Shown piece by piece: positions 14,553 through 35,500 of a stretch of 64,000 nt of DNA. Source of the stretch: Euglena gracilis (taxonomy: Eukaryota). A model generated the notes under the pieces. The model saw only the letters and a list, made by a program, of their open reading frames with translations. It searched no databases and was not told the DNA's origin. Each line of letters opens with the position of its first letter. Position 1 is the stretch's first letter. Position numbers and translations under genes: made by a program. Location of the stretch: assembly GCA_039621445.1 (NCBI GenBank), contig CP154954.1, forward strand, positions 14,364,387-14,428,386, given 5' to 3'.

Positions 14553-17500
14553 CGCCTCTCTCCTTCTCCCGCCCTGCCCCCACCTGGTGAAGTCCGTGGT
14601 CACGGGGACCATCGTCCCCCACGCTGTGCCGCACCCTCATCCAGACCCTGCAGCGCCTGTACAGCGAGTCGATGGATGTGACCGCCCTGCAGGTGTCATG
14701 GGCGGCCACCGAGTCTGATGGCGCCAGAAGGCCTAAAAAGGCTTTTTGACCTCTTTCTCGCCCCCCAAAATGTTTTTGAGTTCTGCAAAAATGTTTTTAA
14801 TTTGATGGCATCAATTTTGTTTTGCCCAAGGAGCCTCTAGAGCCTTAGACTTGAGTACAGCTAACCTACTCCCTCTCGGGAAACTGTCACCTATGGGAAA
14901 CTGTCACCTAAGCCTGTACTCGTTGACCTGTCTCCATAGGGACCTGTCCCCGACCTCTGCACTCGCTGACCTTCAACCCCACAAATTGGACCTCATTTTC
15001 TCGAATTTTGACCACAATTTCGCCCTTTTTGTATTTCTAGGTCAGTGGGGGGTTGAAAATTCATCTTTTCCCCTCTGACCCAGACCTGCCCGGGAAACTC
15101 ACCTAAGCCCTGTCCTCGCTGACCTGTCATTATAGGGACCTCGCCTCTGTACTCGCTGACTTGTCAGGCCCCAGTTTCCCGGGGGGGGGGGTGGGGGGGC
15201 TTTTTGCCCACCAAGACCATTTGGGGCTTGGAGTCAAAAGAATTTTTTTTTCTAGTGTCCAGACAGGCTCCTTCCCCCCCCCCCCCCAGCCTTACTGGCC
15301 CCCCATCCTCCGACACCATCGTCAAGGCCCTGGTGCCGTTGCTGTGCCGCATCGCAGAGGCCGGGTACGGGGAGGTGGTGGGCAGGGCATCGCTCAGGTG
15401 TGAGCGGAAGGTCCCGCCAGCCCCATTTTTGCCCGGCTCCACTTCGTGGGTGACAGCTTATCAGTACAACATGTCAATGTTATATATAGTGTTATATATA
15501 TATATATATATATATATAGATATATAATATATATAAATATCTATATATGTCAAAATAAATTAATGAACCATGAAATGTGGTATCATCGTGCATTCGTGCA
15601 GTTCCCAGCTGGATAAGTGGGCTGCTGGCAAACAAACAAAAAAGCCAACCAGCTCAAAAAAAAAAACAATTTCAGAACGAAGGGTTAGTGAGACGTGTCA
15701 CCGGTTGACGAACCCACCACGCCGAGCCAGGAACTGTCTTGTCCAGCCGTAGCCGAGTGGCCAAAAGCGGTTCTACCTCCCCCCCCCCCCCCGAGAACCT
15801 GTCCGGGTCCCTCCCCAGAAACCGTCAGGGTCCCCACTACCGGCCAACCTGTCAGGTGACAGTTTCCCGGGGCGGGGGGGGGGTAGGTATGAACCCTCAT
15901 GCTGGTCATGGCTCCAAAAAAAGAATTGAGAGTCAAATGGGGTGGTGGGGACCCCCCTCACCCTTACCAAGCAAAGAACCCGCTGCACCTCACCAACTGA
16001 GCGGCGCCGTGGGGGTTGGCCCAGAGCCTGGCCGGCTACCACGCCCTCGCCAACGCCCTCCTCCAGGCGGCCCAGGAGGAGGACGAGGAGGAGTACCGGA
16101 CGCTGGCAGACAGGCCGGGGGCATGCCGCATGACTGGCACCCCCCAACGCATGACTGGCACCCCCCAACGCATGACTGGCACCCCCCCCCCCTGGCACCC
16201 CCAACGACATGGCTGGCCCCCCACCCAACCCCCCCGCTGACTGGCATGACCCCCCCAAACGCATGCCTGGCACCCCCCCCCCCCCCCCCCCCCCAACGCA
16301 ATGGCCGGGCACCCCCCCCCCCCCCCCCCTCCCCCCCCCCCCCCCCCCCCCCCCCCCCCCGCCCCACCCCCCAACGCGCACCCCCCCCAACGCACCCCCC
16401 AAATCGCGAAAAATGTGGCTGTGTGGGTTTGGTCCCCCAACGCACGCCATCACAACATTTTCACCCTCCCATCACAGAACAGCTCCTGTGTGCACCCCCC
16501 CCCCCATCATGAAACCCCAGTCTTGAAGGCTTCACCGCCCACTATGCTCGAGTGGGCAAACTACCCCTCCGATAAGGTCAGGCTTAAAGCCAGCAACACC
16601 TGCCCAACCAACATCCTCATCGACACCCAACCTTCCACGCAGAGAAACGAAGGCACATCTGCCACATCTTGCCTCCCCCTCCACTTGTCTAAGCACCCCC
16701 CCCCCCCCGGCCACTTACCCATCTTTTAAAAGATCATCTTCTCAGGGAAGCTTATTTCGGGTGAGAAATATTGCGCTTCGCGCCGAAAAAGAAAAATAAA
16801 CCCCTTATTTCGGAGGCTACAGTTGAACTGACAGGCGTTTGGATGCAACAACCAACAATATCCCACCAAATCAAGTTGTTGCAGGCAAACTTTTTACCCC
16901 TTGTCCAAGCACCCCCATCGGTTCTTGCCCATTTTTTTTTCCAGTTATTAGACAAAGGTGTGTGTGCGTGCGCGTGCGTCTGTGCCACTGTGCACGCCCG
17001 TGAGTGTGTGTGTGTGTGTGTGTGTGTGTGTGTGTGTGTGTGTGTGTGTGTGTGTGTGTGTGTGTGTGTGTCTGTGCGCGCGCGCGCGTTCACATGTGTG
17101 GGTATGTGGGTGTGTGGGTGTGTGCATGTGTGTGTGTGTGTGTGTGTGTGTGTGCGTGTGTACATGTGTGTGTGTGCGTGTGTGTGAGTTTGTGTGTCTT
17201 TGTGTGGTGTTTGAATCCCACTGCCTGCCGGCAGTGCAGGAGGCGTGGGTCTTGTTCATGGATTCCCGGCAGCAGGGAGCACTGGTGGACACCCGAGCAG
17301 GGCGGTGGAGCGTTTTTTTTCCCTCTTCCGCCGCAGGAAGATGGCATGACGTTATGCCACAATGCCAGGGAGTCGTTTAAGCCGAAGGGGACCCATTTCT
17401 TGGGTTTCTTGGGGGGGGGTGGGTTCCAGCCCGCCAGCCAGCCAGCCAGCTTTTTTCCGGCCAACAGCTTTTTAAAGCCTCGAACGTCCCCTGTCCAGCC

Positions 17501-32500: not shown

Positions 32501-35500
32501 ACACATATACATAAACAATTCCATATGTGTGTACACACACAGGTACACATGTAGATACACATGCAGATACATACACTGCAGGCACTACCCTAATGTTCCC
32601 CATCCCGCCAAAATATACACAGGCCCCCCTTAAATATGCACTAATACTGGTTATTTTGGGCTTTTATGCGCCACAGACCAGTCGTTAGTGCGTATTGGAA
32701 ATGCAACACATTTTTGGAAAGTTTTTTTTTTTTGAATTGGTGTGTGCATCAGTGAATCAGTGCATCAGTGCATCGTGAATCATTGCCTCAGTGGCTGACA
32801 ACTGAAATGGCCCAAAATGAAAAGCTACCATCTACCATATTTGGAACATTTCTCCGACACAAAATGATTCTAAATAGCCAAAAAAAAATGGGTTTGAGCC
32901 ATATATTTACCCATTTTATGCATTTCCGCATATTTTTCAGCCAAATTTTCCTGGGCACGTAATTGTGCGGATTTGTATATTATATTTTTTTTGGCCACGG
33001 TCTTGTTTTTAGGCCATTTTAGGCCACTTTTTGGCCACTGTTGGTCCTGCTTTGGCCATTTGGGGCAAACATCGACCACTTTTTCCATTTTGGCTTTCCT
33101 CTTTTGGTTGTAAAATGATTTTTCAACGGTGAGTAATAGCTGATACAGCCTAAAAATGGCCCAAACTGGCATGTTTATGCATATGTAAATGTTTATGATT
33201 ATATTTCTGATACATATACACATACACATGCGTATATGTATATGAACATGAATTTGTATGTGTATGTGTGCCCTGGTGACCCCCATCGTGGTGGGGAGAT
33301 CTCCGTTCTTTCCCACCAGGACTTTCCGTACAGCCCTGCTGCTGGCGGCGGAGGTGATTGCGGCCCACTATGTGCTGGCAGTCCGACCGGGAGGGGCGAG
33401 TGTTTTCGGGGCTGGCGACGCCGCTGGCCTCTGCCCGCCACGGATGTGTTCAAGGTGATGTGTGCCTTCCCTGCATTCAACGTGTCCTTCACTCTACCCA
33501 CCGACTCCATAGTTTCCAGTGCTTCAACAATCCCCCCCCCTCGGGAAACTGCCTCCTGCCTCCGAAACCTAGCTGGCTTGTCTGCAGACGGTGTCCCAGT
33601 CTCCTGGCTGGGCTGGGGGGAAGGCAGGTACCCACTTGTTCCAGGGGTAACTGCCGGGGGCGTCCAACCTTTTGTTCCCCGAATTTTTTTTTAGCCCGGG
33701 CTTATTTTTTATACCCAGCCTTTTTTTTATCCTTCGGCTTTTGTAATACCTACTTTTATACCCTAGAATTTTTGAATTTATTTTTTATTTTTGTATTATT
33801 TTATATATTTTTCTTATTTTTTTTACCTCCAGCATTTCATCGCGGGCCCTCCCGCCCCCAGCAGCCCACACCGGGGGCGTTCGCCCTCTCCCACGCCGCC
33901 GCAGAGGAGTACCTCGGCGCGGGCCACCCGCTCGCCACGCTGCTGGGCGTGGCAGCGGCGGAGGGCGTGCCCCGGCAGCCGCTGCCCGCCGCGGCCGGCG
34001 ACGTCCCAGACCTGCCGGGAACCCCCGCCCGGGGCTGAGCAGGACTCTTATCGAAGAGGGAACACAAAAACTTTTTTTTCAATGAACATATTTTTTTTGT
34101 TTTTAAGCGTTCTTTTTTGTGTTTCTGTTTCGCAACATTTGTGCTGCTTTTTTTGTGGGGGGTTCTTTTTTTCTTTGTGCATGTCCTCTGCCTGTTTTTG
34201 TCACTAACCGACTTTGTAGGGTTTGCAGATATTTTTTTGAGTGTTTTGCAGGGGTTTGCCGTCCTCCTTCGCAGCGGCCATTGGACAGGTTCCCTCGAGG
34301 CTCGGGGTCCGAGCTCCACACGAGGAGGTTCAAGTCTCAAGTCTCCTGGAGGACGTTTGGGGAGAAGACCTTGCGAGTCTCCTCTTGCGATGCTTACTCC
34401 ACACCGTCCAACCCACATGCTTTTCCATGTCCGCCACCTCCCATACAATATATATGAGACCAGTATTTGATGCCTCAATGCTTTCATAATGAACCTATAC
34501 CCTCCCATACCATTTACCCCCCCCCCAAGTAAACTCTCATGCCTGTGAACCTGTCTGGGTTGGCCAACCTTTTATTCTCAAAAGTTGGCCGGGTCCCCGG
34601 TGCCCCGAACCAGTCGGATGCGAGTTCCTCGGGCGGGGGATGGGGTGGTGCTGGGTATGTGTATGGGGGTCTGCCCGCCCACCCACCAGCCCCGCCACCA
34701 TCCGGGCCACAGCGGCCGCTCCGGCTCCGCCCAAGCGGCCCACGCCGGCCAAGTCGTTTGCCGTCTCGGCGGCCGTGCGCGGCCCTCGGGTGACGCCTGC
34801 CGGCCAGGGCAAGGTGGCCAGAGGTGGTGTTTTGGCCTGGGGGGAGGGGGGGGTGGCGTTAAAGGTTGAAGATTTCACTGGAGGGGGAAGCAGGTGGGTG
34901 AAAGGACTGACAAACACAAATTCTGCAAACGTCAACCCACGTGTCGACATTGAGACACAATATCGAAAGCCTCAGTAACAGTTCCGGAAGCTGATTAACG
35001 GTCCCATTGCCAAGCGACGATTGTCAAATAAAATGATATTGCAGGTACACAGATGGCTGGTATTTTTCTTTTCTGCGATTTATCCTGCCACACACATTTT
35101 TTTTATGTGTGGACCCCTGCCGTCGTGTGTGTCCAATATAGATATTATCCGAGTTGAACCTGTCCACCACCCATCTGGAAACTGTACCTCAACCTTCATG
35201 CTCGTTGAATTATTTGGAGTCCAGGATTTCTGCTGCCGGACCTGTAAAGCAGGAGGGGTATGCACAATTTACAATTTACATACTTTGCATTTATTTTCCT
35301 ATTTTTGCATTTTTAATGAAATATTTAATTTGTGAAAGAATATTTGGGAAATGGAATAATGCAATTCATCCTTCCACCAAAATCCCCAGACAACCTGAAG
35401 TTGCCCAGTTGCATATATTTGCATTTCATTAATGAATGAAGGAAAATTAGTTTGGGAAGAATTCAAGTTTCCACCGCGCTTTCTGTCTGGCTTGCCATTT

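Follow-up and report, generated by a model that had tools for sequence, protein, structure and literature searches.

Nonconventional introns of a Euglena gracilis gene and their possible origin from inverted-repeat elements with 8-bp target duplications

The DNA analysed is a stretch of 64,000 nucleotides (nt) from Euglena gracilis (assembly GCA_039621445.1, contig CP154954.1, positions 14,364,387–14,428,386, forward strand), referred to below as the window. It is nuclear, with a high GC content and many repeats, and contains a gene in which at least 18 introns are defined by RNA (15379–31070). A preliminary description made from the letters alone had reported eight introns of this gene that lack GT-AG ends and carry similar 8-nt flanks, and had read them as hAT-type transposons that are spliced out together with one copy of their target-site duplication (TSD). 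The observation was correct; the introns add to a class that was already known, and those first described are a selected part of the set. Here, the junction repeats of these introns, the elements in the window that have the same ends and the possible origin of the introns are considered.

The gene and its introns

Two RNA-like contig sets (X1 and X2), a raw RNA-Seq run (X21) and a DNA contig set (X20) were mapped onto positions 15000–31600. From this mapping 14 joints were listed, each contained in a single X1 contig and a single X2 contig, and 13 of the 14 were backed by raw reads from X21 (1 to 14 reads apiece). None of the X20 contigs contained any of the 14 joints. X1 record 4, with pieces 29047–29150, 29534–29726 and 30272–30463, added the introns J15, J16 (29151–29533) and J17 of the list below and the 5′ edge of J18 (30463). 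The DNA run lacked all 18 RNA-defined junctions.

All eight introns of the preliminary description fitted into this gene, and its list was shown to be incomplete, as ten more RNA-defined introns lie in the same span. Four of the 14 joints agree with its introns 1–4 once the possible slide is allowed for. Six of the eight had RNA support at either end and a seventh at its 5′ end, and the eighth is outside the RNA coverage. None of the 18 RNA-defined introns could be slid to GT/GC..AG ends, which agrees with the lack of GT-AG ends noted before. Excision as first described did restore the frame, one frame being open across each of the eight junctions. The first 15 exons, joined at the RNA joints, gave about 360 codons without a stop, and the later exons keep an open frame until a stop near 33456; single exons of the gene are 35–193 nt long.

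The introns are listed with their RNA joints, the length over which the junction can be slid through an exact direct repeat (slide, where noted), the X21 reads, the core trinucleotides and the matches between the letters just outside the two cores (flank). N3/N5 means 3 nt between the 5′ cut and the 5′ core and 5 nt between the 3′ core and the 3′ cut. J1, J4–J8, J10–J13 and J16 were not on the preliminary list, whose introns 1–7 correspond to J2, J3, J9, J14, J15, J17 and J18.

15380–16017, + strand, J1: joint 15378→16017, X1 and X2 contigs, 2 raw reads; cores CAG..GTG, 9-nt spacing (N3/N6), flank 6/9, inverted arms of 16–24 nt like those of the element 3919–5270
16108–17232, + strand, J2: joint 16104→17230, slide 5, 5 raw reads; CAG..CTG, N3/N5, flank 6/8
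17295–18298, + strand, J3: joint 17290→18295, 4 raw reads; flank 5/8
18330–19400, + strand, J4: joint 18329→19401, 8 raw reads; CAG..CTG, N3/N5, flank 3/8
19444–20268, + strand, J5: joint 19439→20265, 8 raw reads; degenerate cores CAT..GTG, flank 5/8, GCT at positions 10–12 of both arms
20365–20889, + strand, J6: joint 20359→20885, 6 raw reads; cores CAG..GTG, flank 5/8
20983–21361, + strand, J7: joint 20982→21362, 4 raw reads; CAG..CTG, N3/N5, flank 5/8
21411–21637, + strand, J8: joint 21407→21635, 3 raw reads; N3/N6, 9-nt spacing, flank 5/9
21776–22061, + strand, J9: joint 21773→22060, 7 raw reads; flank 6/8
22105–23110, + strand, J10: joint 22104→23111, slide 0, 5 raw reads; cores CCG..CGG, flank 1/8; contains the nested element 22680–22996
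23153–23999, + strand, J11: joint 23151→23999, 14 raw reads; cores CTG..CAG, flank 2/8
24094–24821, + strand, J12: joint 24093→24822, slide 0, 10 raw reads; CAG..CTG, N3/N5, flank 1/8, GCT at positions 10–12 of both arms
24936–26112, + strand, J13: joint 24934→26112, slide 6, 1 raw read and X1 and X2 contigs; cores CAG..GTG, flank 5/8; contains an 85-bp element (25946–26030)
26190–26490, + strand, J14: joint 26188→26490, X1 and X2 contigs, 0 raw reads; flank 4/8
28552–29052, + strand, J15: X1 record 4 piece beginning at 29047, slide 9; flank 8/8, a perfect repeat
29151–29533, + strand, J16: X1 record 4 pieces 29047–29150 and 29534–29726; CAG..CTG, N3/N5, flank 3/8
29730–30274, + strand, J17: X1 record 4 pieces 29534–29726 and 30272–30463; flank 4/8
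30467–31070, + strand, J18: 5′ edge 30463 in X1 record 4, 3′ edge placed by the frame and a 6-nt slide; variant cores GGG..CCG, flank 7/8
31097–33343, + strand, intron predicted from the letters (the eighth of the preliminary description): motifs, frame continuity, flank 7/8; beyond the RNA-mapped stretch

At least one further intron lies between 26491 and 28545. The contig sequence between 26490 and 28545 amounts to 164 nt; when the N3/N5 rule was used to divide it between two exons, five candidates resulted, none of them favoured. An X2 contig runs 255 letters upstream of 15312, off the mapped stretch, so that the gene must extend upstream by a minimum of one exon and one intron.

At 16077 and at 29678, 31 raw RNA reads each diverge into unrelated sequence, and one X2 contig passes from 29695 to 16057 through 11 other letters. 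Short GC/GAG-rich matches to another abundant transcript most likely explain the read run-off at the two positions; a paralogue or alternative joining might also account for it. Long C runs and GT and TA/CA microsatellites lie inside J2 (16260–16380 and 16980–17200) and inside the predicted intron 31097–33343 (31400–32600), which contains long microsatellites, with one at 31641–31767.

Assignment to the euglenid nonconventional introns

The segments belong to a known class, the nonconventional introns of euglenids. The eight segments of the preliminary description were seen to begin with N3-CAG and to end with CTG-N5, with GGG..CCG in 30467–31070. Of the 18 RNA-defined introns, 12 fit the strict code N3-CDG/CH′G-N5-6, and the other six keep its geometry with degenerate cores (CAG..GTG in three, and CAT..GTG, CCG..CGG and GGG..CCG in one each). 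Terminal inverted repeats (TIRs) are present, with arms matching at 6–10 of the first 12 bases in 18 introns (J1, scored separately, 7/10). Beyond the core, the two arms of an intron matched at 6.0 of 9 positions compared to 3.3 of 9 for cross-intron pairs (19 arm pairs; a mis-entered coordinate of J1 lowers the own-arm mean).

The downstream exon starts with a purine (R) in 18 of 19 introns and the intron ends with a pyrimidine (Y) in 18 of 19; at the 5′ junction, Y at the exon end and R at the intron start were each found in 16 of 19. This corresponds to the published mirrored consensus, Y–R at both junctions with C at the third base of the downstream exon, to which the CCAGG logo adds a C at intron +3 (PMC11170887). 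Such a pattern would be expected of one target site present in two copies.

Genetic work had previously defined the N3/N5(-6) spacers, and 50-bp synthetic introns whose paired sequence is arbitrary are spliced normally (PMC12501133). In published work the spacers of 3 and 5(-6) nt, the core and the pairing were each required for splicing, and natural as well as synthetic introns were spliced from a foreign exon site too. Junctions were slidable through direct repeats in 15 of the 18 introns studied here. The published figures for E. agilis are 84.4% slidable among all introns and 69.1% among nonconventional introns, and the published E. agilis analysis left out the 'slidable' introns, which are the ones bearing the repeat signal.

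Direct repeats at the junctions

In the splice register, core-to-core spacing was 8 nt in 16 of the 18 introns and 9 nt in two. By length, the earlier arithmetic of an element plus one 8-nt copy fitted 16/18 introns, where the excised stretch is 8 nt longer than the element measured from core to core, but not the two introns with 9-nt spacing. Flank identity was compared with a background of cross-intron pairs, which preserves the Y–R consensus and the composition, and significance was determined by permutation (100,000). For the 16 introns with 8-nt spacing, identity was 70/128 (55%) compared to 36% for cross-pairs (p = 2e-5; 2 of 100,000 permutations reach this value). Matches at the successive positions of the 8-mer were 5, 7, 10, 12, 11, 9, 7 and 9 of 16 against 4.3, 5.1, 5.2, 5.1, 8.5, 8.7, 3.8 and 5.0 expected, so that the excess is clear at positions 3–4 and 7–8 and weak at positions 1–2. 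An exact slide of at least 4 nt was possible in 10/18 introns and in 8% of 306 cross-pairs, and the exact junction repeats range from 0 to 9 nt in length. Nearly full repeats (J15 with 8/8; J18 and the predicted intron 31097–33343 with 7/8) stand beside almost none (J10 and J12 with 1/8, J11 with 2/8), and the intron set looks like a mixture of a nearly full 8-nt repeat and no repeat.

The eight matches given in the preliminary description (6, 5, 6, 4, 8, 4, 7 and 7; 47/64) were reproduced exactly. These eight are the introns with visible repeats, i.e., a selected set. Its claim that the flanks match above chance was upheld for the 16 introns as a whole, and among the nine introns with 8-nt spacing that it did not list, 4/9 have at least 5/8 matches (p = 0.026). 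In other registers (L = 3–14 nt) the eight introns showed identities of 0.21–0.53, the higher values occurring at 5, 11 and 14 nt, in phase with a codon-like GGC periodicity of the 8-mers. Given the N3/N5 spacers, however, the 8-nt register coincides by construction with the splice register, and its peak over other registers is not an independent test. Inspection by eye of position 2 of the 8-mers gave no clear target-site preference.

Free elements sharing the intron ends

Searching the window for CAG..CTG inverted pairs revealed five elements resembling transposable elements of the miniature inverted-repeat type (MITEs), all with CAGG ends, which most introns have too. Arms of the four short elements agree over their 14–18 terminal bases with 0–1 mismatch. 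The following three are referred to individually (strand not assigned):

22680–22996, MITE-like element of 317 bp nested in J10: CAGG..CCTG, arms identical over the first 14 bases, flank 8/8
3919–5270, element of 1352 bp: CAGG inverted arms, 10/12 first bases matching, flank 6/8; arms resembling those of J1 and J14
51436–51621, MITE-like element of 186 bp: arms identical over the first 17 bases and similar to those of 22680–22996; its flank repeat is a G run and uninformative

The perfect 8-bp duplication of 22680–22996 is bounded by arms on both sides. As this element sits inside an intron, the splice rule cannot account for its 8. Depth in X20 at 22702 was 367,547 in 38 contigs, compared to about 20–35 at nearby single-contig sites; mapped depths are not copy numbers, and the element is therefore taken only as highly repeated. 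Two X20 contigs skip 221 bp inside it (joint 22749→22971, where a single other letter stands) and represent shorter copies of this repeat family from elsewhere in the genome. A metagenome scan with a 22-nt end of the element gave 0 matches.

When intron ends were compared with the ends of free MITE-like elements, as suggested earlier, only the terminal 12 nt proved to be shared, and the intron interiors are unrelated to one another. The 12-nt consensus of the ends is about CAGGnnnnnGCT. GCT occurs at arm positions 10–12 in 9 of 38 intron arms (J1, J5, J6, J12, J14 and J17), compared to 0–4 at other offsets, and in both arms of three of the five MITE-like elements. Synthetic introns splice without GCT (PMC12501133), so that GCT is not needed for splicing and the known splicing code does not explain it, whereas common descent of the ends does. 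The clean element 22680–22996 with its perfect duplication and the GCT common to six introns and three elements are the new, local support found here.

Other repeats in the window

A different MITE-like repeat is present in two copies, 26656–27065 and 45128–45535, that are 95.6% identical over 411 bp. It has inverted ends of the C-run/ATGTCCAA type and is flanked by TA, and it looks like a Tc1/mariner-type (TA) element, not one of the CAG type. One copy lies within the intron stretch after 26490, and a diverged copy lies in J15 (28645–28860, similar to 26824–27026). X20 depth reached up to 736,101 in bin 26634–27187.

A large inverted duplication was found at 39100–41600, in which 39816–40229 is self-inverted and 40809–41383 matches 39127–39679 at 77%; a longer inverted pair is at 40769..41464. 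The open reading frames (ORFs) in 39100–41600, including 40125–40547 on the minus strand, gave no Pfam match.

Origin of the introns

On balance, most of the introns probably began as insertions of TIR elements that duplicated 8 bp of their target, and the RNA cut would remove the element together with one copy. At the DNA level, a short TIR element with CAGG...CCTG ends would insert and duplicate 8 bp, and its ends would become the cores. At the RNA level, as published work suggests, the inverted ends would pair and draw the two junctions together; a probably non-spliceosomal activity would then make two cuts, one lying 3 nt ahead of the 5′ core (CAG or a variant of it) and the other 5 nt, or in some cases 6, beyond the 3′ core (CTG or a variant of it), and would ligate the exons. 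As 3 + 5 = 8, such a cut would take out the element and exactly one duplicate and thereby restore the frame that existed before insertion. As the element ends are palindromic to each other, excision would work in either orientation. After insertion, the 3 nt and the 5 nt of the duplication that lie in the intron would drift, and old introns would lose the repeat in this way. A transposon reading of the introns is plausible, with some local support, and the 3 + 5 arithmetic is a testable corollary of it, not a discovery.

Several observations weigh against this origin. The nine unlisted introns with 8-nt spacing have a summed identity of 30/72 (42%) compared to 36% (p = 0.20); 5 of the 16 introns with 8-nt spacing have at most 3/8 matches; and two introns are spaced by 9 nt. 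With only 5 and 7 matches of 16 at positions 1–2 of the 8-mer (4.3 and 5.1 expected), the introns taken alone are also compatible with a repeat of 6–7 nt. When a motif-agnostic scan for CAG..CTG inverted pairs was run across the whole window and low-complexity flanks were excluded, the 8-nt register (shift 0) did not stand out as a peak. Unfiltered and with shifted-flank controls, the same scan gave a weak maximum at shifts 0 and -1 that came from G/C runs, and with exact 7-nt terminal seeds it gave nothing informative, the low-complexity filter having also dropped the G-rich duplication of 22680–22996; one 64-kb window is too small for a test of the register. Only this one free element has an informative perfect duplication, three of the five lying in G or C runs or in a GTGG repeat, where a duplication is not judgeable. 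Intron interiors are at single-copy depth in X20 at a likeness of at least 95% (e.g., bins 16108–16661: 46.7; 30512–31065: 79.9), and self-BLAST of the interiors showed no mutual similarity save for nested repeats, unlike classical introner families. Finally, a Pfam search with 10 ORFs of the window, including two in 3919–5270, gave no match at all, and no transposase was found among them.

hAT ends are typically of the CAG type, YARNG. The free elements and introns end in CAGGG or CAGGC; the first four bases fit this pattern, and at the fifth both G and C occur, depending on the arm. As for the hAT-like 8-bp duplication, one of the five free elements is clean (22680–22996), one has 6/8 (3919–5270) and three have low-complexity flanks. 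The label hAT is a guess. It is possible, although rather unlikely, that the elements are TIR transposons with 8-bp duplications of another kind (Merlin, P-like or a superfamily not yet described): the 10 ORFs revealed no hAT transposase, and the literature search found no paper joining hAT, transposase, introns and Euglena, but CAG-type YARNG ends are typical of hAT. The Merlin families F1 and F2 of E. gracilis generate 8-bp TSDs, and Merlin TIRs have a terminal 5′-GG and an 8–9-bp TSD (PMC8101967). The TSD length would suit Merlin, but the ends would not, since each of the five free elements, like most of the introns, has CAGG there.

Footprints of intron gain by double-strand-break repair (filler DNA, microhomology) offer another source of the junction repeats, with the inverted ends and the CAG/CTG cores selected for splicing later. 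This mechanism was proposed for the 8-nt repeat of a new gapC intron in E. agilis (PMC4770533), and it would suit interiors that are mutually unrelated and of single-copy depth as well as exact repeats that vary from 0 to 9 nt. However, we consider it unlikely here: it leaves unexplained the exact 8-bp duplication of 22680–22996, which is nested, not spliced and has the same ends, and also the GCT at positions 10–12 common to intron arms and MITE-like elements, though synthetic introns splice without it.

That the repeats contain no biological duplication signal, and reflect the likeness of the two cut sites in their consensus (Y–R, GC-rich coding sequence) and the choice of the eight best cases, is very unlikely, since permutation preserving consensus and composition reached the observed sum in only 2/100,000 cases, slides of at least 4 nt occur in 10/18 introns compared to 8% and 4/9 unlisted introns have at least 5/8 matches, even though the cross-pair background is already 36% (8.5–8.7/16 at positions 5–6), the unlisted introns sum to only 30/72 and the window-wide scan is without a register peak.

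Insertion of TIR elements with 8-bp duplications is therefore the origin that we favour. A wider idea can be put forward more tentatively, and it may well prove too broad: euglenid nonconventional splicing would be an RNA-level precise excision tuned to one CAGG...CCTG transposon group with an 8-bp duplication. Exon insertions in either orientation would then be silent in mRNA, the nonconventional introns, of which hundreds of thousands are reported in Euglena genomes, would be their fossil record, and the mirrored Y–R and C consensus would represent the two target-site copies.

Prior proposals and significance

A MITE-like origin of these introns was already proposed in 2013 (PMC3935182), 'TSD-like' junction repeats are mentioned in a 2024 review (PMC11282704), and the N3/N5 code was reported in 2025 together with the suggestion that the machinery mitigates transposon insertion (PMC12501133). 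In E. agilis, a recently gained, strain-specific gapC intron bears an 8-nt direct repeat, for which the authors proposed break repair (PMC4770533). The literature search, from which supplements and a 2021 J Mol Biol paper on circular intron RNA were left aside, found no statement that 3 + 5 corresponds to an 8-bp TSD and no hAT assignment. A transposon origin of nonconventional introns is suspected, and the origin of these introns and the machinery that removes them are stated to be open questions (PMC6221363; PMC12501133).

The spacer arithmetic makes the MITE hypothesis sharply testable on existing data. If it is true, the duplication must be 8 bp long and take up the whole core-to-core space, and neither free copies nor young strain-specific introns may show any mismatch in it. 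It would also mean that a eukaryote tolerates exon insertions of one transposon group by way of a dedicated splicing code, and it would name the ends with which the autonomous element, and possibly a related RNA-cutting factor, could be found.

Comparison with known systems

Like members of the hAT superfamily, the CAG-type elements of the window have short TIRs (14–18 bp in the free elements) and ends starting with CAG, and one of them has a clean 8-bp duplication. Several of them differ from hAT at the fifth terminal base, with C in place of G. Merlin of E. gracilis is likewise a euglenid DNA transposon with 8-bp TSDs, but its TIRs are described as starting with GG and no link to introns is reported (PMC8101967).

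In the introners or MITE-derived introns of Micromonas and Aureococcus, as proposed here, a TIR element and its target duplication give rise to an intron, the duplication helping exact excision (PMC11282704). Those introners are spliceosomal, with GT/GC-AG partly derived from a 3-nt TSD, and form families of near-identical copies (PMC11282704), whereas the introns of this gene have non-canonical ends, an 8-nt repeat and unrelated interiors. The introners of Amoebophrya and the non-canonical introns of Fritillaria also have inverted repeats at their ends and direct repeats at their junctions and are read as MITE-like (PMC7789003; PMC11282704); unlike here, the direct repeats are 3–5 nt long and variable, and excision is ascribed to a modified spliceosome.

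The closest relatives are the nonconventional introns described previously (Milanowski 2014, 2016; Gao 2024; Nomura 2025: 5′-N3CDG-/-CH′GN5-6 followed by R), which have CAG at +4 to +6, CTG at -8 to -6, paired ends and no GT-AG, as found in this gene. No essential difference from these introns was seen: all 18 of the 18 assayed introns of this one gene belong to the class, six of them with degenerate cores.

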